Source: Dehalococcoidia bacterium (GTDB taxonomy: Bacteria > Chloroflexota > Dehalococcoidia > DSTF01 > JACRBR01). Taken from it: a stretch of 64,000 bases of DNA. The DNA is taken from positions 39,565-103,564 of the forward strand of contig JBBRPY010000004.1 of assembly GCA_038227375.1 (NCBI GenBank), in the 5' to 3' direction. The number at the start of each line of letters is the position of its first letter. Positions within the stretch are counted from its first letter, which is position 1. A program made the translations under genes and the position numbers. This document shows, piece by piece, positions 1-50,154 of this stretch. The notes beneath the pieces are model-generated. The model did not search any database. It was not told the DNA's origin and worked only from the letters and a program-made list of their open reading frames with translations.

Positions 1-756
<756 letters not shown>

Positions 757-782
757 TCTTAGTTCCTTGCTCAATGGGGAAT

Positions 783-806
783 GGAGACTAGAGATTGGAG
801 ATTGGG
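783..806 (+). repeat. heptanucleotide tandem array (GGAGACT AGAGATT GGAGATT GGG), left arm of cassette 1
   Basis: Period-7 repeat read directly from the sequence. It is complementary in composition to 1204-1235. Confidence 0.8.
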
Positions 807-838
807 TTCTCGGACTACGGTTGGCGAATTCGAGATCG

Positions 839-1188
839 CTAGTACTGGATCAGTCTCGTTAACTGCTTGCCAACTACTTCGTACTGCTCGATGAACTGCG
901 ATGCCTCCTCCTGCACAACGTAACCCGGCGCCGCGGCTGTTTTCAGATGGCCTTCCATTTCGTTTGAAGATCCGACTGAGATCGCGAGGAAGCTGCACAG
1001 CTCGCGGGGAGAACGTTGTCGGGCGTAGCCCTCCACGATGTTCGCAGCCACGGATTTGCAAGCGCGCCGCATCTGGCTGGCGAGATCATATTTCTCGTAA
1101 TCGGGAAACCCGAGGACCAACGAGTGGATTGGCTTCTGAAGGGCAACGCCCGTTTGTAGACTTCCAGATCTTCATAGCCGTGACCCAA
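839..1188 (-). pseudogene. four-helix-bundle protein (23S rRNA intervening-sequence protein / Avd-like family), disrupted by a 1-nt frameshift
   Basis: The N-terminus MGHGYEDLEVYKRALPF (ORF 943-1188, TTG start) continues in another frame as ..ALQKPIHSLVLGFPDYEKYDLASQMRRACKSVAANIVEGYARQ...SVGSSNEMEGHL (ORF 839-1120). It aligns with the intact paralog at 2315-2884. It could also be an assembly indel. Confidence 0.7.
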
Positions 1189-1203
1189 ATTCCGCTCGCG
1201 ATC

Positions 1204-1235
1204 CCCAGTCTCTCCAGTCTCTAATCTCTAATCTC
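1204..1235 (-). repeat. heptanucleotide tandem array (CCCAGTC TCTCCAG TCTCTAA TCTCTAA TCTC), right arm of cassette 1
   Basis: Period-7 repeat. It overlaps the stop codon (1228-1230) of the dehydrogenase at 1228-2409. Confidence 0.8.
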
Positions 1236-2409
1236 TTGGCAACCCCAACCCCCGCGTCGCGATGATGTTTCGCTGGATCTCCGACGTGCCGCCGGCAATC
1301 GTCGACGAGAGCGACGTCATGTAGCTGCTCTCGTAGCTCCCCTTCATCGGCGCCGCGTCGCCGTAGAGCTGGCCGTAGAGGCCCAGCACCTTCATGCCCG
1401 TGCGCGCGATCCGCTGGTTGAGCTCCGACGAGAAGAGCTTGGTCATCGAGGCCTCGTGGTTCGGGATCAGACCCTTCGCCTGCATCGTCACGACCCGGTA
1501 CGACATCATGCGCGAGACGTTCGCTTCGACGTAGCGGTCCGCCAGCTCGGTCCTGATCGACTGCATGTAGCCGCTCCGGCTAACGCCCGAGGCCTCCTGC
1601 TCCTTCGCGTACCTCACCAGCCGGTCGAGCTGCAGGCGAATGCCGACGGCGCTGCCGATGCTCGATCGCTCGAAGTCGAGCGTGGTGGTGCCGACGTACC
1701 AGCCGCGGTTCACCTCGCCCACGATGTTCTTCGCGGGCACGCGCACATCCTGGAAGAACACCTCGCTGAACATGTTCTGGTTCGCCAGATTGGTCAGCGG
1801 CCGCACCTCGACGCCCGGCGACTTCATGTCGAGCAGGAAGTAGCTGATGCCCTTGTGCTTCGGGGCATCAGCGTCGGTGCGCGCCATCATGAACATCCAA
1901 TGCGCGTACTGCGCGCCGGAGGTCCAGATCTTCTGGCCGTTGATTACGTAATCGTCGCCATCCTTCAGCGCGCGCGTCTGCAACGACGCGAGGTCCGAGC
2001 CCGAGCCTGGCTCGCTGAACCCCTGGCACCACTGCACATCGCCGGAGAGGATGCGGCTCAGGTGTTCCTTCTTCTGCTCCGGCGTGCCGTGCGTGATGAT
2101 CGTCGGGCCGACCATCGACACGCCCATGCCGCCGACCGGCGGCACGCGGTGCTCGGCGAACTCCTCATTCATGATGAACTGCTGCATAACGGAGAGGCTG
2201 GCGCCGCCGTACTCCTTCGGCCACGCCGGCGCGATCCACCCCTTGCCCGCCAGCTTCTCGCGCGTGTCCTTCAGGCGCTCGAAGGCGCCGCGATACATTC
2301 CGCGCTCAGCGAACTCACCGTCCTTCGCGCTCTGCGGCAGCTCCTTGTCGATGAACTCCCGCACCTCTGTGCGGAACGCTGCTTCGTCGGTGCTGTCTTT
2401 GAAATTCAT
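1228..2409 (-). CDS. acyl-CoA dehydrogenase family protein, paralog B
   Basis: 393-aa ORF with WIAPAWPKEYGGAS, CQGFSEPGSGSDLASLQTRALKDGDDYVINGQKIWTSGA and a C-terminal GGTSEIQRNIIA motif. AGGAGGA lies 7 nt upstream of the ATG. Confidence 0.93.
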   Translation of the reverse strand: MNFKDSTDEAAFRTEVREFIDKELPQSAKDGEFAERGMYRGAFERLKDTREKLAGKGWIAPAWPKEYGGASLSVMQQFIMNEEFAEHRVPPVGGMGVSMVGPTIITHGTPEQKKEHLSRILSGDVQWCQGFSEPGSGSDLASLQTRALKDGDDYVINGQKIWTSGAQYAHWMFMMARTDADAPKHKGISYFLLDMKSPGVEVRPLTNLANQNMFSEVFFQDVRVPAKNIVGEVNRGWYVGTTTLDFERSSIGSAVGIRLQLDRLVRYAKEQEASGVSRSGYMQSIRTELADRYVEANVSRMMSYRVVTMQAKGLIPNHEASMTKLFSSELNQRIARTGMKVLGLYGQLYGDAAPMKGSYESSYMTSLSSTIAGGTSEIQRNIIATRGLGLPRD

Positions 2410-2884
2410 GCGTCAGTTCCTCCTGGTCGTCGGTCGTCAGGGCGTCGTGCGCTGTCGTGTGATCGTCGGCATCGCGTGGGATCTTGGTGCGCCAGTGTTG
2501 CCACAATCGGAACACCTGCTTCGAGACGATCGCGTACTCGCTCTCAAACTGATCGTGCGTTGACTGAGAGAGGTATTCGAGCTCGCGCGCGACGTCGAGA
2601 TGCACCCGCACTTCGGTTGAAGAGCCGTAGGAGATACGCAGGTGCTTGCAGAACAATTTAGGCTCATCGCGAATGGCATACCCTTCCCCGATGTCCGCAG
2701 GAACGGACTTCGCCGCACGCCGAATCTGGCTGGCGAGATCAAACCGCTCGTAGTCCGGGAACGTCAGGACCAGCTCGTGGATCGGTTTCAGAAGGCCAAA
2801 CGCGCGCTTGTAGACGTCGAGATCCTTGTAGCCGAGTATCTCGATGATCTGCGCTGTCCCCGACGACCGGCGGCCGCCTACCAT
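2315..2884 (-). CDS. four-helix-bundle protein (23S rRNA intervening-sequence protein / Avd-like family)
   Basis: Contains YKDLDVYKRAFGLLKPIHELVLTFPDYERFDLASQIRRAAKSVPADIGEGY...SYGSSTEVRVHLDVAREL. The recognisable domain ends near 2490. The ORF then reads through the left repeat arm and overlaps the next gene by 95 nt, so the functional 3' end is uncertain. Confidence 0.75.
   Translation of the reverse strand: MVGGRRSSGTAQIIEILGYKDLDVYKRAFGLLKPIHELVLTFPDYERFDLASQIRRAAKSVPADIGEGYAIRDEPKLFCKHLRISYGSSTEVRVHLDVARELEYLSQSTHDQFESEYAIVSKQVFRLWQHWRTKIPRDADDHTTAHDALTTDDQEELTHEFQRQHRRSSVPHRGAGVHRQGAAAEREGR
2425..2447 (+). repeat. heptanucleotide array GGTCGTC x2 + AGGGCGTCG, left arm of cassette 2
   Basis: Read directly from the sequence. 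It abuts the Shine-Dalgarno site of the gene starting at 2409. Confidence 0.85.
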
Positions 2885-2958
2885 CCGTCCCCCACTTTAC
2901 TCAGAGCGAGCCACAGGTCCTCTACGGCGGCCGCTCCCGCTCGCATCGACAGCTGCTG

Positions 2959-2989
2959 CGACGTCCCTGACGACCGACGACCGACGACC
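2959..2989 (-). repeat. heptanucleotide array (CGACGTCCCT + GACGACC x3), right arm of cassette 2
   Basis: Reverse complement of the left arm plus one extra unit. It starts 10 nt downstream of the stop of the gene at 2999-4216. Confidence 0.85.
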
Positions 2990-2998
2990 ATCGTCCCC

Positions 2999-4216
2999 CT
3001 ATGCCCGCGGCATGCCCAGCCCCCGGCTCGCGATGATGTTCCGCTGGATTTCGCTCGTGCCGCCGCCGACAGTGCTGGTGGTAGCGTACAGGTAGGCGCT
3101 GGCGACGCGGCCGTTCGACGCCACGTACGGGCTCGCCTTCGTGAGCTGGCCGTAGGCGCCGAGCGTCCTCATCGCCGTCCCGGCGATCCGGATATCCAGT
3201 TCCGATGAGAAGAGCTTGGCGATCGACGACTCCTTGTTCGGCACGAGGCCGCGGTTCTGCATCGAGATCACCTGGTACGAGAGCATCGATTCGACCTCCG
3301 ACTCGATGGCGCGGTCGGCGATCTCGTGCCGCACCGCCTTCGCCTTCGAGATGAATCCCTGGCCGCGGTTGTCGCGCACGAATTTCGCGAGGTCGTTGAC
3401 CATCAGCCCGTGCGAGACGCTGGTGGCGATGCCGGAGCGCTCAAAATCGAGCGTGGTGGTGCCGACGTACCAGCCGCGGTTCTCCTCGCCGATCAGGTTG
3501 TCCTTGGGTACGCGCACGTTGTCGAAGAAGACCTCATTGAAGTCGTGGTTGTTCGCCATGTTCACTAACGGACGGACCGTGATCCCCGGCGACTTCATAT
3601 CGAGGATGAAGTAGCTGATGCCCTTGTGCTTCGACGCATCGGGGTCGGTGCGCGCAAGCAGGATCATGTAGTGCGCGACGTGCGCGCCCGAGGTCCAGAT
3701 CTTCTGCCCGTTTATGACGTAGTCGTCGCCGTCCTTCGTTGCGCGCGTCTGGATCGATGCGAGGTCCGACCCCGCGCCCGGCTCGCTGAAACCTTGGCAC
3801 CAGACGGCATCGCCCTTGACGATCGAAGGCAGGTACTTGCTCTTCTGCTCCTCGCTGCCATAGAGGATGATCGTCGGGCCGGCCCAGCCGGTCCCGATGC
3901 CGAAGTTGCCGCCCTTCGGAGCGCCGACGCGCGCCATCTCCTCGTTGAAGATGAACTGCTCCATCACGGTCATACCTGCGCCGCCGTACTCTTTCGGCCA
4001 GGCCGGGGCGATCCACCCCTTGACGGCGAGCTTCCGCACCCACGTGGCATTGGTCTTGCGATAGTCCTCCGGCGACATGCTGGTGTCGTCCCAGCCGCCA
4101 CCGCCGAACATGGCGCCGAAGCCCCTCCGCTTGATGCCGGGCGGGCACTCCGTCTCGATGAACGCGCGGACCTCGGCGCGAAATGCGGCCTCGGTGGATG
4201 TGTCGTGAAAATCCAT
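2999..4216 (-). CDS. acyl-CoA dehydrogenase family protein, paralog C
   Basis: 405-aa ORF with the same motifs as the two paralogs: WIAPAWPKEYGGAG, CQGFSEPGAGSDLASIQTRATKDGDDYVINGQKIWTSGA, GGTSEIQRNIIA. Confidence 0.93.
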   Translation of the reverse strand: MDFHDTSTEAAFRAEVRAFIETECPPGIKRRGFGAMFGGGGWDDTSMSPEDYRKTNATWVRKLAVKGWIAPAWPKEYGGAGMTVMEQFIFNEEMARVGAPKGGNFGIGTGWAGPTIILYGSEEQKSKYLPSIVKGDAVWCQGFSEPGAGSDLASIQTRATKDGDDYVINGQKIWTSGAHVAHYMILLARTDPDASKHKGISYFILDMKSPGITVRPLVNMANNHDFNEVFFDNVRVPKDNLIGEENRGWYVGTTTLDFERSGIATSVSHGLMVNDLAKFVRDNRGQGFISKAKAVRHEIADRAIESEVESMLSYQVISMQNRGLVPNKESSIAKLFSSELDIRIAGTAMRTLGAYGQLTKASPYVASNGRVASAYLYATTSTVGGGTSEIQRNIIASRGLGMPRA

Positions 4217-4320: not shown

Positions 4321-4992
4321 TCATATCGCGCCCGCTGGTTCCCGCATCGGCTTCGCCTCGGGGTTGATGTAGCGCGGTCGCCCGCCCGGCTCCGCGCGTA
4401 CGGCATTCAGGTACACCCGCCCCCAGAGGTCGGCCCGCGCGCGGTCCATCTCGTCCTTCAGTCCCAGCATGTGCATCATGTCGAGCGTCATGCCGATGCC
4501 GAGGAACTGCCAGGCGACGAGCCGTGTGTTCACCTCCGCGCGGACGATGCCGCGCGCCTTGCCCTCGTCGAGCGTGTCGGCGACGAAGTCCACGAACGCC
4601 TCAAAATTGTCGCGAAGGGCGCCGCGGATGTCGGCGTCATCGACCTCGGACAGCGCGCGAAACTGCAGCTTCATGTTTGTCGCGTGGGATTCGAGGTGGT
4701 CGTAGTAGTAGACGCCGATCGCCCAGAGCGTCTCCATCGGGTCTTCGTAATCGACCGAGATCTCTTCCCAGATCTTCAGCAGGCGGGGCCCGGTCGCGCG
4801 AATCGCGGCGACGAAGAGCTCCTTTTTTCCTGAGAAGTGGCGGTAGAGCGCGGGTTCAGAAATGCCAGCCGCTTTCGCCAGGTCGGCGGTCCCGACGTGC
4901 GCATAGCTCTGCGACGCGAAGACATCGCGCGCGCTCTCGATGATCTGGCGCCTGCGCTTGGCCGCGGGAAGCCGTGCCGCTCTCTGGTGCAT
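4321..4992 (-). CDS. TetR/AcrR family transcriptional regulator
   Basis: N-terminal HTH region RRRQIIESARDVFASQSYAHVGTADLAKAAGISEPALYRHFSGKKELF. The ATG at 4992 is preferred over the GTG at 5028, which lies inside a palindrome. Confidence 0.85.
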   Translation of the reverse strand: MHQRAARLPAAKRRRQIIESARDVFASQSYAHVGTADLAKAAGISEPALYRHFSGKKELFVAAIRATGPRLLKIWEEISVDYEDPMETLWAIGVYYYDHLESHATNMKLQFRALSEVDDADIRGALRDNFEAFVDFVADTLDEGKARGIVRAEVNTRLVAWQFLGIGMTLDMMHMLGLKDEMDRARADLWGRVYLNAVRAEPGGRPRYINPEAKPMREPAGAI

Positions 4993-5011
4993 TACGTCCG
5001 CTCCGGAATGA

Positions 5012-5029
5012 AGTGAGTGAGCACTCACT
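5012..5029. promoter_or_regulatory. candidate TetR operator (8-bp inverted repeat AGTGAGTG-AG-CACTCACT)
   Basis: A perfect 8+8 palindrome lies 20 nt upstream of the tetR ATG. Its size and position are typical for autoregulated TetR genes. This is inference. Confidence 0.4.
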
Positions 5030-6860: not shown

Positions 6861-7988
6861 TTATCCCGCGAAGTCCATCACGCAGTGCACGGTGACGCCG
6901 TCGGCGGGTGCGAAGAAGCAGCGGCCTCCAGCGCGGCGATACGCCGGGCTGAGGATCTCCTCGCGGTGGGCAGGGCTGTTCATCCACGCCTGCACCAGCG
7001 CGTCGGCCGACCAACCCTGCGTCCCCCAGGCCAAAATCTCGCCCAGCTGCACGGTGAAAGGGAACCCCGCCGCCTCGATCCGCGACACGAACGTGCTGCC
7101 GTCCGGACCGGTATGCGAGAACCAGCGGTTGTCGGAAAGCACCTTCGCGTAGCCGCTGGCGGCGTCGAGCAACCTGTTCTCGGCGATCACCGGCGCCAGT
7201 CCGGCCCGCACGCGCTCCTGGTTCACGAGGTCGCGGACCCGGCCGCTGTACACATCGTCATACCAACCGGCGGCAGACGTTACCGGCGGCGCCGGAGCGG
7301 GTGGCGGCGGTGGGGGCGACGGAGGTGGTGGAGGTGGTGGCGGGGCCGGCGGCGCCTGGGTGAGCGCCACGACTGGGGCAGCCGGTTCCGGAGGGGCCAG
7401 CGGCGGCGGCCCGGCCTGCTGCTGCGGCGCGCCAGGCAGCGCGCCCGCCGCGGCGAGCGCCTGCGCCGACTGCAGGATCTCGAGCAGCGACGGCTGCGTC
7501 GGCTGCGGGAGCGCGCCTGCCTTCGCGAGGGCGTCTGCCGCTCGCAGGATGTCGATCAGCGGCGGCTGGCTGGACGGCGCTTGCGGCGGCAACGCACCGG
7601 CCTTCGCGAGCGCGTCTGCCGCTCGCAGGATGTCGATCAGCGGCGGCTGGTTGGACGGCGCTTGCGGCGGCAACGCACCGGCCTTCACAAGCGCGTCGGC
7701 CGCCCGCAGGATGTCGATTAGCGGCGGCTGGCCGGACGGCGCTTGCGGCGGCAACGCGCCGGCCTTCGCGAGCGCATCTGCCGCTCGCAGGATCTCGATC
7801 AGCGGCGGATGCTCCGCGCTCATGGGCGCGGTGGGCTGGGCGAGATCGCCCGTGCGATCGGTTGCTTCTCCACCGCCGGAATCGGCGTGATAGGCGTAGG
7901 CAAGCCCGGCAGCCGCGGCGATCAGCGTGATCGCACCGGCGACAGCGGCGAGCATCTGCCAGCGGCCGGACGTGTGGCGTTCCTGCAT
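6861..7988 (-). CDS. membrane-anchored CAP/SCP (YkwD-like) domain protein with tandem 27-aa repeats and a poly-proline linker
   Basis: N-terminal TM segment LAAVAGAITLIAAAAGLAYAY. Four to five copies of PPLIDILRAADALAKAGALPPQAPS.Q, then a [15 protein letters not shown] linker. The C-terminal CAP-like region reads VNQERVRAGLAPV...NRWFSHTGPDGSTF...AWMNSPAHREEIL. Confidence 0.8.
   Translation of the reverse strand: MQERHTSGRWQMLAAVAGAITLIAAAAGLAYAYHADSGGGEATDRTGDLAQPTAPMSAEHPPLIEILRAADALAKAGALPPQAPSGQPPLIDILRAADALVKAGALPPQAPSNQPPLIDILRAADALAKAGALPPQAPSSQPPLIDILRAADALAKAGALPQPTQPSLLEILQSAQALAAAGALPGAPQQQAGPPPLAPPEPAAPVVALTQAPPAPPPPPPPPSPPPPPPAPAPPVTSAAGWYDDVYSGRVRDLVNQERVRAGLAPVIAENRLLDAASGYAKVLSDNRWFSHTGPDGSTFVSRIEAAGFPFTVQLGEILAWGTQGWSADALVQAWMNSPAHREEILSPAYRRAGGRCFFAPADGVTVHCVMDFAG
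7410..7808. repeat. 81-bp in-frame tandem repeat (4 good copies + 1 degenerate) inside the CAP-domain gene
   Basis: The marker TTGCGGCGGC recurs at 7581, 7662 and 7743, giving a period of 81 nt (27 aa). Confidence 0.9.
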
Positions 7989-8489
7989 GCGAGCGCTCCT
8001 CCCGACACCACATCCCCGGTGCCCCGCCGCGCGGTCGCGCGAACACGAGGGTGATGATGCGGCCGGAGCGGACGCGATCGTGAGAGCGCGAACCCTGACG
8101 GCATGCCACGGACGACGCCGAATGACGCGCGCCCTGACGCCTAGTGGCGCACCCTCGGTAGCTCGCGTGGAAGCGCCGACGCTCGCCCGTCCGCGAGCAC
8201 CAACGGTGCAACGAATGGAGGCGGCGAAGGCGGAGCGAACACGGGTGATGAGGGATCGTGAGAACGCCGAACGGACGACGTTGGATAGAGCCGTCGCCGA
8301 ACGCTACAGGCGGCGTTCCGTGCGGACAGAGTGACGAGCGAGGAGCGAGGACGCGCGGCAATTTCGCCCCGGAGAAGCTCCCCTTGCCACGCGGCGGAGG
8401 GGTGGTCGAAGACTCGTCGCGGAGAGGGATGGGGCCGTACGGGTGCGGCGCGGTGACTGTTTCGTGGAGCGCGGGCTAACTACGGCACG

Positions 8490-12078: not shown

Positions 12079-13887
12079 ATGCATGCGCGCAGAGCCGTCC
12101 CCCTTGCCGCGCTGGCGCTGTTGCTGGCCGCCCTAGCGGCAGCGGGAGGCGTCTTCCTCTCTCGCCGGGGCGGTGGCACCAGCCCGGGCGGAAGCGGCGT
12201 GCCGTTCCATCTCGAGCGCCCCGCGGCCGCCTACGCCGACACTCAGATCTGCTCCGTCCTCAAGTTGGGTGGCAGCGAGGCGGGCGTTAGCGGTCAGGAC
12301 GGCGGCACCACCAACGTCGTCGACGGCCGGTCGTACTGGACCTTCGGCGACACCATCCTGCAGGGCGGTGGCGTGCTGCCGAACAACGTCGGCTTCAGCA
12401 CGGATACGAACCCCGACGACTGCATCGACATCACGCGCAAGGCAGACGCCTCCGGTACGGCGGCGCCCCTGCTGCAGAAACTCGATGATGAAGTAACGGT
12501 GTGGCCGGCGGCCGGGCAGGTATCCGTGCAGCCAGGCTCCGTCCATTTTCTGTTCGAGTCGGTGGCGAACGCCGATTCGAAGACGGGGCGCTACAATTTC
12601 CGGCGCATCGGGCTCGGCAAGTTCGACCCGGGTTCGATGAATGGCACGCGCGTGATCGCAAACCTAATCGACGCAGGCGCGTTCCCGGGGCATGCGTTCT
12701 CGCTCACGCCGGCGACCGACATGCTCGTCTCGGAGGGCTACGTCTACATCTACTTCGCGGTCGACTGGAATGCCCGCGTCGGGCGCGTGCCGGTCGCGTC
12801 GATCGAGGACAAGGCCGCCTATCGCTACTGGAACGGCTCGGACTGGGCTGCCGACGTCGCGCAATCGATCGACATTCTGCAAACGGCGGGCGGCCAGCAG
12901 GCCTTCAACGTCGACTACAATCCGTACCTCAAGAAGTGGACGGCGATGTACTCCACCAACACGCTGACCGCCGTCGCCATCGCCTACGCCGATGCGCCGG
13001 CAGGTCCCTTCACGGACGAGACGCTTCTCCTCGACTGCAAGGCGATCTTTCGAAACCCAACGCTGGCCTGGGCAAAGCGCCGGCGCCTCTTCCCGGCGGT
13101 CGCGCTCTCGTACCTGTGCTACCACGCGACGCAGCACCCGGAGTTCGACAAGAATGGGCGTCAGGCGCTGTACATCACCTACGGAAACACGGCATCGTAC
13201 ACGCTCTGGCTGCACAAGATCGTCCTCGCCGTGCCATTCGTGCAGTGGGATGATGTGGCGGGCCGCACCTCGTACGCGCGCGGCGGAAACGAGGTCGCGG
13301 CTGCCGCACGTCAGGGTGTGGCGTTTTACGCGCCGACCGAACCGGATGCCTCGCTCGCTCCCGTACACGACTGGCTCGATCCGACGTCCCGCGTGCACCG
13401 CTACGAAGTCGATCCGCCGGGGGGCGCCTACACCGACAACGGCGTCGCGTTTTACGCCGCGACGTCTCCGCAGCCCGGGCTGGAGCCGGTGACGAGATGG
13501 CAGTCGACCACCGACGAGAACCGCGTGGTGTACTCGACGTTCGACCTCGAGCAAGCCGGGTATACACGCGGTTCCGTGGGCTTTTACGCCGCTACGCTCG
13601 AAGGCCAGACCCCAGTCGACACCGAGCACGGCTACGTGTACTGGGTACACGAGCAGGGCGCGCAGGACTTCGGGTGCTGCAACCAGACGAACAATCCGAC
13701 CCGGCAGACGCAGGAACCTTCGCAGTCATTCACGCTATCGGTCGACCCGAACCCCAACGGCTACGAAGGCGTCGTCTGCTCTCCTGTTTGCGGCACTGGC
13801 GGCAAGGTGGTCTGGTCCGGCCCGGTCACGTTCTCGCCGAATCAGAAGGGTGGCAAGCTGACGCTGACGCCAAAGGGCCAGAAGTGA
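12079..13887 (+). CDS. secreted protein: DUF4185-like beta-propeller domain plus three C-terminal (V/G)(A/G)FYA repeats
   Basis: Signal peptide MHARRAVPLAALALLLAALAAAGG and the hallmark DGRSYWTFGDT. The repeats are GVAFYAPTEPDASLAPVHDWLD, GVAFYAATSPQPGLEPVTRWQS and SVGFYAATLEGQTPVD. Confidence 0.6.
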   Translation: MHARRAVPLAALALLLAALAAAGGVFLSRRGGGTSPGGSGVPFHLERPAAAYADTQICSVLKLGGSEAGVSGQDGGTTNVVDGRSYWTFGDTILQGGGVLPNNVGFSTDTNPDDCIDITRKADASGTAAPLLQKLDDEVTVWPAAGQVSVQPGSVHFLFESVANADSKTGRYNFRRIGLGKFDPGSMNGTRVIANLIDAGAFPGHAFSLTPATDMLVSEGYVYIYFAVDWNARVGRVPVASIEDKAAYRYWNGSDWAADVAQSIDILQTAGGQQAFNVDYNPYLKKWTAMYSTNTLTAVAIAYADAPAGPFTDETLLLDCKAIFRNPTLAWAKRRRLFPAVALSYLCYHATQHPEFDKNGRQALYITYGNTASYTLWLHKIVLAVPFVQWDDVAGRTSYARGGNEVAAAARQGVAFYAPTEPDASLAPVHDWLDPTSRVHRYEVDPPGGAYTDNGVAFYAATSPQPGLEPVTRWQSTTDENRVVYSTFDLEQAGYTRGSVGFYAATLEGQTPVDTEHGYVYWVHEQGAQDFGCCNQTNNPTRQTQEPSQSFTLSVDPNPNGYEGVVCSPVCGTGGKVVWSGPVTFSPNQKGGKLTLTPKGQK

Positions 13888-19756: not shown

Positions 19757-19782
19757 ACGGGGATCGTAGCACACGGTGGGCT

Positions 19783-19818
19783 GGATGTTGGAGGTTAGAT
19801 GTTGGATGTTGGAGGGTG
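19783..19818 (+). repeat. heptanucleotide tandem array GGATGTT GGAGGTT AGATGTT GGATGTT GGAGGGT
   Basis: Period-7 repeat read directly from the sequence. No inverted partner is seen nearby. Confidence 0.8.
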
Positions 19819-20556: not shown

Positions 20557-20600
20557 GAAGTAGCTCCTGCAAGGCGATAGCGGCGACGGTCCGGTACGGC

Positions 20601-20635
20601 CTATAACCTATCACCTCCACCCTATAACCTCACCC
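20601..20635 (-). repeat. heptanucleotide tandem array CTATAAC CTATCAC CTCCACC CTATAAC CTCACCC
   Basis: Period-7 repeat ending 1 nt before the ATG at 20637. One of its units supplies a TATAAC -10-like hexamer. Confidence 0.75.
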
Positions 20636-44622: not shown

Positions 44623-44664
44623 TGGTCATCGGTGAATGGCGATTTGGTGATTGGTGACTGGTTG
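44623..44664 (+). repeat. heptanucleotide tandem array TGGTCAT CGGTGAA TGGCGAT TTGGTGA TTGGTGA CTGGTTG
   Basis: Begins 9 nt after the stop at 44614. Same unit and orientation as 45168-45212. Confidence 0.8.
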
Positions 44665-45164: not shown

Positions 45165-45167
45165 ATG

Positions 45168-45212
45168 TCTGGTCAGTTGGTGATTGGTGTCTCGTGATTG
45201 TTCGGTTCGTTG
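45168..45212 (+). repeat. heptanucleotide tandem array (TGGTCAG TTGGTGA TTGGTGT CTCGTGA TTGTTCG GTTCGTT)
   Basis: Begins 4 nt after the cupin stop. Confidence 0.8.
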
Positions 45213-45675: not shown

Positions 45676-45760
45676 GGGCGCCGGATTCGATCCGCATCAT
45701 CGCCGCGTACCCAACACTCGGACGCGTTGGGTGGCGACGGCTCTCGGCACGAACCGACCG

Positions 45761-45799
45761 CAAACAGCAGACGGCAAACAGCAAACAGTGAACATCAAC
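45761..45799 (-). repeat. heptanucleotide tandem array CAAACAG CAGACGG CAAACAG CAAACAG TGAACAT
   Basis: Period-7 repeat read directly from the sequence. It has no partner. Confidence 0.75.
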
Positions 45800-49927: not shown

Positions 49928-49942
49928 CCGGTTCGGGGTGGT

Positions 49943-50002
49943 GGTCGGTCGTCGGTCGTCGGTCGTCGGTCGTCGGTCGTCGGTCGTCGGTCGTCGGTCG
50001 TC
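49943..50002 (+). repeat. GGTCGTC x8 perfect heptanucleotide tandem array
   Basis: Units counted directly over 49947-50002, plus a partial unit at 49943-49946. Starts 16 nt after the stop at 49927. Confidence 0.95.
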
Positions 50003-50105
50003 GGGGATAGTACGTCCGCTCGACGCGGCAATCGCTGCGATGCCAGCGCGCGCGGCCCGATCGAAAGACGAACGGCGCAACGTTTAGGCATCGATGGAGG
50101 AGTGT

Positions 50106-50154
50106 CCCCCGACGACCGCCGACCGACGACCGAGGACAGACGACCCGACGAACC
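50106..50154 (-). repeat. imperfect GACGACC array (inverted partner of 49943-50002)
   Basis: CCCCC GACGACC GCCGACC GACGACC GAGGACA GACGACC CGACGAA CC. Ends 5 nt before the stop codon at 50159-50161 of the minus-strand gene. Confidence 0.85.

Follow-up and report, generated by a model that had tools for sequence, protein, structure and literature searches.

How does a gene of the family known from intervening sequences (IVSs) of 23S rRNA come to lie between two acyl-CoA dehydrogenase (ACAD) cistrons of an ordinary operon, and what do the inverted arrays of a seven-nucleotide unit that enclose it there represent? The question is raised by a 64,000-nt stretch of DNA from a Dehalococcoidia bacterium of the Chloroflexota (assembly GCA_038227375.1, contig JBBRPY010000004.1, positions 39,565 to 103,564 of the forward strand), referred to here as the window, in which a preliminary description made from the sequence alone had noted a four-helix-bundle (4HB) gene at one junction of the operon and had proposed an IVS-like, possibly mobile cassette. 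The present analysis finds two selfish cassettes of the IVS type within the ACAD operon, of which one seems intact and the other is frameshifted. Judged by its sequence anatomy, the segment 2410–2994 is the same kind of element as the IVSs of 23S rRNA genes, placed in a different host transcript, an mRNA. The selfish character is supported by pseudogenes that have kept their arms, together with an interior GC content below that of the flanks.

The junction between the first two dehydrogenase genes (J1) comprises the following features, in window coordinates.

2999–4216, minus strand: ACAD1, the upstream acyl-CoA dehydrogenase cistron
2946–2994, minus strand: 5' arm of J1, three GGTCGTC units (2969–2989) plus AGGGACGTCGCAGCAGCTGTCG
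2849–2892, minus strand: degenerate second copy of the J1 5' arm, carrying the start codon of 4HB1
2315–2884, minus strand: 4HB1, the four-helix-bundle gene, 189 aa, with the domain at residues 20–123
2410–2458, minus strand: 3' arm of J1, core GACGACC units at 2425–2447, outer end overlapping the AGGAGGA of ACAD2
1228–2409, minus strand: ACAD2, the downstream acyl-CoA dehydrogenase cistron

Read along the minus strand, the ACAD1 stop codon (3001–2999) is followed after 9 nt by three GGTCGTC units and AGGGACGTCG, then by about 60 nt and the ATG at 2884; the 189-codon open reading frame (ORF) leads into CGACGCCCT and two GACGACC units (2447–2425), AGGAGGA, 8 nt and the ATG of ACAD2 (2409). The junction measures 589 nt and the cassette 565 nt. 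This order, with a single gene between the ACAD cistrons, a 95-nt overlap with ACAD2, and the Shine-Dalgarno sequence AGGAGGA (2418–2424) abutting the 3' arm, agrees with the preliminary description, as does the location of the inverted arms, whose cores at 2425–2442 and 2965–2982 are complementary at 18 of 18 positions according to the repeat finder. A second pairing register joins 2424–2438 to 2976–2990 (15/15). The arms had been called identical but for one extra heptamer and one mismatch; the extra heptamer is there, but the supposed mismatch is really a 1-nt indel (AGGG-CGTCG vs AGGGACGTCG), and pairing reaches about 20 nt further inward than had been given for the otherwise correctly located arms. 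Taken at roughly 49 nt per side (2946–2994 with 2410–2458), the arms form about 40 bp at -68.6 kcal/mol, compared with -33 ± 5 for a shuffled partner. Folding of the transcript, a check that had been suggested for this locus, predicts a stable terminal stem, which is present in both the minimum free energy and the centroid folds of the whole 611 nt. The degenerate arm copy at 2849–2892 is 77% identical to 2956–2999 and 83% complementary to the 3' arm (-41 kcal/mol).

The repeats themselves are far in excess of expectation. The 14-mer GGTCGTCGGTCGTC, allowing at most one mismatch, occurs 13 times in the window vs 0.12 expected, and its matches cluster at three places, namely the two J1 arms and a separate inverted pair at 49940–50151. 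Tandem 7-nt units in at least three copies were reported by Tandem Repeats Finder (TRF) in intergenic spacers of the window at 2425–2447, 2969–2989, 782–805, 1218–1236, and 49940–50004. A search of the whole window against Rfam at gathering thresholds returned one tRNA only and no rRNA, and the arms were matched by no described RNA family. No sigma-70-like promoter was seen in 700–3100 on either strand, and the same interval held no terminator-like site on the operon strand and two on the plus strand, no more than in shuffled sequence; both results are weak evidence. The idea that the heptamer arrays serve as stop codons in all three frames was ruled out, as GGTCGTC and GAGGTCG arrays hold no stops.

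The membership of 4HB1 in the 23S rRNA IVS protein family, recognized earlier from its sequence, is upheld by profile scores well above the cut-offs (PF05635, 92.6 bits with a cut-off of 33.8; TIGR02436, 83.5 bits with a cut-off of 24), and residues 20–113 match PDB 2GSC (XCC0516) with an E-value of 5e-13. The family is large, with 8304 cluster representatives at 50% identity at E ≤ 1e-3. Exact-protein look-ups of the window's ACAD1 and 4HB proteins gave no match, and orthologues were reached via homologues; viral contigs yielded no 4HB relatives with the patterns used. The C-terminal ~50 residues of 4HB1 arise from reading through the 3' arm and then 95 nt into ACAD2. This read-through, which had been remarked upon before, is real but represents a derived state: an orthologous cassette (locus L008) also has GGTCGTC arms, and its gene has its own stop before the 3' arm, from which it follows that the read-through and the 95-nt overlap came after a 23-nt indel. 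The 189-aa ORF overlapping ACAD2 is an artefact of a lost ancestral stop codon, a lineage-specific accident and no feature of design. The 4HB protein, which is related to the nucleic-acid-associated pentamers Avd and XCC0516, most likely serves the propagation of the element and not the host. Copies with broken ORFs still keep their arms. Both 4HB ORFs of the ACAD operon are passengers that stand outside fatty-acid metabolism.

Inverted-array arms are the normal setting of the whole 4HB family and are not peculiar to the ACAD locus. To score arms, 280 nt upstream of each gene was aligned to the reverse complement of 310 nt downstream, with controls of the same geometry shifted within the loci. 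A first sample of 79 loci (75 scored) was fetched from species-representative genomes with an alignment of six Chloroflexota 4HB proteins, and its phyla include Chloroflexota, Patescibacteria, Acidobacteriota, Proteobacteria, Bacteroidota, Planctomycetota, and Omnitrophota; a second sample of 66 loci came from metagenomes with a different query (cyanobacterial plasmid copies and an Azospirillum rRNA copy). Scores above the 95th percentile of the shifted controls were obtained for 66 of the 75 loci in the first sample (Mann-Whitney p ~1e-38) and 59 of the 66 in the second, or 125 of 141 4HB loci when pooled. Median scores in the first sample were 38 for real flanks, 18 for shifted flanks, and 18 for 5' and 3' arms paired across loci; the last value, being at background, means that each cassette's arms match only each other.

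Almost every locus of the first sample has inverted tandem-repeat arms with a unit of its own. A period common to both arms, assessed at 67 loci, was 7 in 44, 8 in 11 (mostly Acidobacteriota), and 9 in 1, compared with none in 162 controls, and purines make up 72% of the arm 5' of the gene; in the second sample the period was 7 in 51/54 and the 5' arm was purine-rich in 51/54. In the 1.16 Mb of sequence fetched, 88 complementary array pairs surround a 4HB gene and 45 surround a spacer shorter than 250 nt, while the other 31 pairs have other content, mostly arms of neighbouring cassettes or GC-rich noise. Whether such arrays flank unrelated genes just as often had been named as a check on the original proposal, and the answer is that they do not: complementary pairs hold a 4HB gene or almost nothing. 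Interior GC content was below that of the flanks in 63 of 63 loci. Locus pairs with compatible arms have a median protein identity of 61% vs 41% for the rest, as expected if arms and gene descend together.

The survey also turned up hairpins with other cargo. At L063 (12235–12712), inverted period-9 arrays TGTTTCGTG / CACGAAACA (score 67) enclose a GxxExxY gene (TIGR04256, E 5e-31) in place of the 4HB gene, which adds another cargo family to array hairpins. At L084 (4081–4919), weakly complementary heptamer arrays, with a score of 24 that equals the detection threshold, flank a small GIY-YIG-like ORF with a weak profile match. A survey of rRNA insertions in bacteria of the candidate phyla radiation (CPR) found GIY-YIG ORFs inside non-intron insertions (PMC11270868). 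Separately, L054 (Roizmanbacteria) and L059 (a metagenome-assembled genome labelled Gammaproteobacteria, GC 0.34) have 4HB genes that are 96% identical and lie between the same arms, which suggests mis-binning or recent transfer.

Several 4HB loci were found inside 23S genes, in sense orientation, in the helix-45 region (L040, L041, L042, L075, and L044) and the helix-25 region (L056), and 4HB cassettes with heptamer arms lie in or beside CPR 16S genes (L025 10001–10363, L035 10001–10393, and L043 8122–8478). In plasmid AZO_p2 of Azospirillum lipoferum 4B (L090 1436–1904), the best plasmid match, an intact 4HB ORF replaces the helix-45 hairpin of the 23S gene; no feature is given for it in the PLSDB gene table, which omits RNA genes and coding sequences without a protein accession. 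The rRNA operon of L040 has additional ORF-less array hairpins at 7932–8466 and 12150–12374. The rRNA-borne cassettes carry inverted heptamer arms (e.g., GGACAGA / GGACGGA) as the operon-borne ones do, and one protein query retrieved both kinds of copy with like arm architecture. The IVS of Coxiella burnetii has a 28-bp terminal stem with tandem GACAGAT repeats at its 5' end, the number of which depends on the strain; RNase III cuts within this stem in vitro, the RNA ends have been mapped, and the S23p ORF is apparently decaying (PMC4990558). The earlier comparison of J1 with the geometry of rRNA IVSs is therefore well founded, with L040, L044, L056, L090, and others all carrying inverted tandem-heptamer arms.

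Between J1 and the rRNA IVSs with an S23p/23S_rRNA_IVP ORF (Leptospira, Coxiella burnetii, Brucella, CPR bacteria), the protein family is shared and the size is alike (~430–600 nt), as are the terminal inverted repeats of tandem heptamers that give a long stem enclosing the insert, the sporadic occurrence among close relatives, and the frequent decay of the ORFs. The differences concern the host. By definition an IVS resides within an rRNA gene, where it occupies a helix tip, whereas J1 sits in an mRNA, in the spacer that separates a stop codon from the following ribosome-binding site. Furthermore, nothing at J1 would keep cleaved halves together, unlike the case of an rRNA IVS in the ribosome.

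Outside of rRNA, the cassettes have a consistent position with respect to their neighbours. The nearest upstream gene is co-oriented at 37 loci and opposite at 6 (p = 2e-6), and the distance from the upstream stop codon to the arm has a median of 5 nt (range -7 to 34), while the downstream gene is co-oriented at 30 and convergent at 16; 21 loci are strictly intercistronic like J1. In Anabaena sp. 90 plasmid pANA02 (L089), a cassette lies between cas6 and cas4, and a gene of the 4HB family has been reported between cmr3 and cmr2 (PMC3936711). Cassettes inside cas operons explain the earlier "CRISPR-associated" reports of the family, and the reported associations of 23S_rRNA_IVP with cas operons are probably cassette insertions and not functional partnerships. 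At L089 (1899–1962) the annotated start of cas4 lies upstream of the 3' heptamer arm, so that the annotated Cas4 N-terminus is array-encoded, and the start has probably been mis-called; the 5' array has more than 25 units.

The history of the insertion can be read from ten related operons of the order TetR-ACAD1-ACAD2-ACAD3-ACAD4-ACAD5. ACAD1 is ~81–86% identical to that of the window where measured, and the L008 operon was recognized by gene order and sequence. The head of the operon and the state of each junction are as follows.

4321–5028 of the window, minus strand: TetR-family regulator, head of the operon, kept in all orthologous loci
J1 empty: 28 nt in L093, 54 nt in L092, 65 nt in L094
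J1 with an ORF-less array hairpin: L091 (95 nt); with a solo array: L007; with a remnant: L004
J1 with a full cassette: the window, L008, L001 (in-frame stop)
J2 empty: 18 nt in L094, 24 nt in L092
J2 with a remnant: L001, 105 nt, last gene codons and 3' arm kept
J2 with a cassette or degenerate cassette: the window, L007, L091
J3 empty: 12–32 nt in three genomes; 43 nt in L091 and 81 nt in L094 (arrays not examined in these two)
J3 filled: L004, L007, and also L024 if its near-identical cassette and arms occupy that junction
J4 with ORF-less hairpins: L092, L093, the polarity in L093 being opposite

That the same junctions are empty, filled, or decayed depending on the relative identifies the cassette as an insertion that comes and goes, and the possible mobility first suggested for J1 fits this mixture. 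In three of the eight cassettes that these operons carry, the gene is a pseudogene but the arms have been kept. The J1 cassette of the window is orthologous to that of L008, as both have GGTCGTC arms and they are 72% identical at the nucleotide level vs a paralogue background of 60–70%. In L007, a DarT-family gene (PF14487; 11909–13105) is wedged between ACAD4 and ACAD5 with gaps of a few nucleotides.

The second cassette of the window occupies the next junction of the same operon (J2) and again has inverted heptamer arrays, with a unit unlike that of J1.

1202–1236, minus strand: 5' arm of J2, units AGAGATT / AGAGACT / GGAGAGACTGGGGA, the first unit covering the last two ACAD2 codons and the stop
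842–1185, minus strand: 4HB2, a second PF05635 gene, frameshifted, apparently through the loss of 1 nt from the CCC run at ~1141–1143
776–806, minus strand: 3' arm of J2, CCCAATCT CCAATCT CTAGTCT CCATTCCCC, just upstream of the ACAD3 ribosome-binding site
1–756, minus strand: ACAD3, the third dehydrogenase cistron, which runs off the window

The frameshifted gene still scores 89.8 bits with PF05635 and 85.5 bits with TIGR02436, and the arms form 39 bp at -48.3 kcal/mol vs -27 ± 5 with a shuffled partner. At the very end of ACAD2 (1228–1236), the arginine codon is AGA in the window and CGC or CGG in all orthologues. This codon has been synonymously rewritten to AGA by the J2 array, which is direct evidence of homogenisation within an array. 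The two arms also change together. The 5' and 3' units at J2 are TGGAGAY and RTCTCCA in the window, TGGTGAY and RTCACCA in L007, and TGGTGTY and RACACCA in L091, with each substitution present in every unit of one arm and mirrored in every unit of the other. The orthology of these three cassettes is uncertain (67% nucleotide identity), and they may be related subfamilies.

Taken together, these data probably describe an IVS-type cassette that is co-transcribed with the ACAD operon, decaying and only sporadically mobile, whose arms form a double-stranded RNA stem that loops out the insert for excision by RNase III. The promoterless 4HB gene would be transcribed by read-through from the upstream gene, given that it is co-oriented with that gene and near its stop and that neither a promoter nor a terminator came to light. 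Once transcribed, the arms would pair into a stem of ~40 bp with the insert looped out, bringing the ACAD1 stop to within ~30 nt of the ACAD2 ribosome-binding site. By analogy with Coxiella and other rRNA IVSs, RNase III would cut this stem, releasing the 4HB RNA and dividing the operon transcript, so that an mRNA could tolerate the insertion just as rRNA does. A stem of tandem repeats pairs in several registers and so would survive the gain or loss of units by slippage. The purine-rich polarity of the 5' arm persists despite a fast turnover of units, which points to a strand-specific constraint at the level of the transcript or of single strands.

Several observations weigh against this reading. 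Co-transcription and RNase III cleavage at the ACAD operon, which belongs to an uncultured member of the Chloroflexota, are deduced from sequence features. Mismatches within arms were counted by type as a strand test, an attempt with RNAduplex on whole 280-nt flanks having been dropped because its very large duplexes in GC-rich sequence carried no meaning and showed no strand signal; G:T plus T:G pairs numbered 124 vs 151 for A:C plus C:A, with no excess of G-U. The imperfections of the arms thus do not look as if selection had acted on a sense-strand RNA helix, although the counts are compatible with such a helix, and a role at the DNA level, or the renewal of arms by copying one from the other, fits these counts at least as well; arm copying would also account for the concerted unit changes at J2. 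Comparison of empty with filled junctions J1 to J4 revealed no flanking direct repeat that would mark a target-site duplication, and neither a transposase nor a recombinase accompanies the cassette. Where related genomes have a cassette at the same junction, the copies are often orthologous (72–95% nucleotide identity), which means that movement is rare and that the junction pattern is partly one of loss rather than gain. Finally, a single-sequence AlphaFold model (pLDDT 62, with spurious strands) was too poor for a fold search.

The most serious competitor, which we nevertheless regard as rather unlikely, is a mobile element acting at the DNA level, similar to a miniature inverted-repeat element or small transposon, in which the cargo protein, or an enzyme acting in trans, recognizes the arrays in their DNA form, as terminal inverted repeats or hairpins, and the RNA stem is incidental. 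The missing G-U wobble signature is what such an element would predict, and it would account for the nuclease-like cargo of the inverted-array frame (the GxxExxY gene of L063, which is PD-(D/E)XK-like, and the GIY-YIG-like ORF of L084), for the abundance of ORF-less hairpins (45 pairs), and for the covariation of arm type with protein similarity, as in element subfamilies. Such an element has the same want of a transposase and target-site duplication to explain, and a unit that differs between cassettes is hard to square with one sequence-specific enzyme; moreover, rRNA genes cannot do without excision at the RNA level, which has been demonstrated for them (PMC4990558), and the strict purine richness of the 5' arm points to a strand-specific constraint acting on the transcript. 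The arms could also belong to a regulatory module domesticated by the host, with the stem setting, as a processing or stability signal between cistrons, the relative expression of the ACAD paralogues and the 4HB protein binding the repeats as a regulator. That arms outlast the decay of the ORF, that the base of the stem touches the downstream Shine-Dalgarno sequence, and that intergenic regions with heptamer repeats were reported to be unusually stable between Xanthomonas species (PMC4692102) would all agree with such a function, but this is improbable in view of the erratic occupancy of junctions among close relatives, where fully empty junctions of 12–30 nt are common, the occurrence of cassettes in rRNA and in unrelated operons (cas6-cas4; cmr3-cmr2, PMC3936711), the frequency of pseudogenes, and an interior GC content that is always below that of the host.

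Coincidence, in a genome rich in intergenic heptamer microsatellites of which two happen to flank a 4HB gene, has almost no probability left. Solitary, non-complementary arrays do exist in the window (beginning at 19782, 20600, 44623, 45165, and 45756), but the excess of GGTCGTCGGTCGTC and the 125 of 141 independent loci above controls speak otherwise, arms from different loci fail to match one another, and complementary pairs hold a 4HB gene (88) or almost nothing (45); chance is refuted by the shifted and cross-locus controls.

The cassette also has parallels among other small inserts. Correia elements (NEMIS) and REP/BIME sequences are small non-autonomous inserts in intergenic spacers that are co-transcribed with operons, and their inverted ends fold in the mRNA as those of J1 are predicted to do; RNase III cleavage has been reported for Correia elements. 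Unlike J1, these elements have ends of fixed sequence, no tandem-repeat arms, and usually no ORF, and Correia elements have a defined target duplication.

The Avd proteins of diversity-generating retroelements belong to a related four-helix-bundle fold family (PMC10053308; 2GSC match), but the J1 cassette and its two neighbours, to which this comparison is confined, show no parts of such a retroelement: both neighbours are ACADs, and the 565-nt cassette has no room for a reverse transcriptase, template, or variable repeat. The arms are the same thing as the short tandemly repeated repetitive (STRR) sequences of cyanobacteria and the GGGAATC / GGGGA(C/T)T repeats of Xanthomonas and Nostoc (PMC4692102), which are tandem 7-nt units in intergenic or intercistronic spacers. 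Each of two Xanthomonas genomes has ~70 convergent (inverted) heptamer pairs (PMC4692102). Cyanobacterial plasmid copies of the 4HB gene are flanked by STRR-like heptamer arrays, and the unit types AGGATTC/AGGAATC and AGGGGAT of the described repeats are the arms of 4HB cassettes in the second sample. The described repeats have been called microsatellites or G-quadruplex motifs and ascribed to polymerase slippage, and the heptamer-repeat papers found make no link to a cargo gene, an rRNA IVS, or a hairpin element.

The 4HB family, the rRNA IVSs, and the bacterial heptamer repeats are one phenomenon, which appears not to have been described as such. In the full-text literature searched, outside of which most subscription journals lie, heptamer repeats, rRNA IVSs, and 4HB genes in cas loci are each described, and no paper joins them. 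The initial impression that the arrangement had not been described seems to hold as regards a linking account. The arrangement is not special to the ACAD locus but occurs family-wide. IVSs have so far been treated as a curiosity of rRNA genes, PF05635 genes have been carried in thousands of genomes without a known role, and the excess of heptamers has been blamed on slippage; the anatomy of the cassette ties all three together. The 4HB gene normally lies in the loop of a hairpin of inverted tandem repeats, both in rRNA helices and between ordinary operon cistrons, and RNase III excision, if true, would neutralize the insertion in an mRNA.

A broader generalization, which we offer as tentative and doubtful in its entirety, is that IVS-type cassettes form a phylum-spanning class of mobile elements with cargo in a hairpin of inverted tandem repeats, usually an Avd-like 4HB gene and sometimes a GxxExxY or GIY-YIG nuclease-like gene. 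Such elements would colonise gene ends in rRNA and mRNA, would be rendered harmless through RNA excision, and would be the source of the excess of STRR and 'G4' heptanucleotides, with arms kept complementary through arm-to-arm copying. Copying might proceed, for example, by fold-back priming on an excised intermediate, possibly by a reverse transcriptase of the host that the Avd-like protein recruits.

Beyond the operon, the window holds one more complementary pair with the unit of J1, 47 kb away.

49940–50151, plus strand: ORF-less GGTCGTC hairpin, nine GGTCGTC units, a 104-nt spacer, and six degenerate GACGACC units, between convergent genes

This hairpin forms 56 bp at -101 kcal/mol (fold z -6.4) and may act as a bidirectional terminator. 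Further heptamer arrays of the window are solitary, direct, or weakly complementary (19782–19813, 20600–20635, 44623–44662, 45165–45210, and 45756–45788), and a GCAAACA array is also among the solitary ones; solitary or decayed arrays are probably relics of former cassettes. The arrays at 19782 and 20600 around a YajQ-like gene were not counted as a cassette, as their complementarity is at background only, nor were those around a cupin-like ORF, which are two direct TGGTGAT repeats. A tandem repeat of 81 nt, with 3.8 copies at 90% identity, was located by TRF at 7505–7808.

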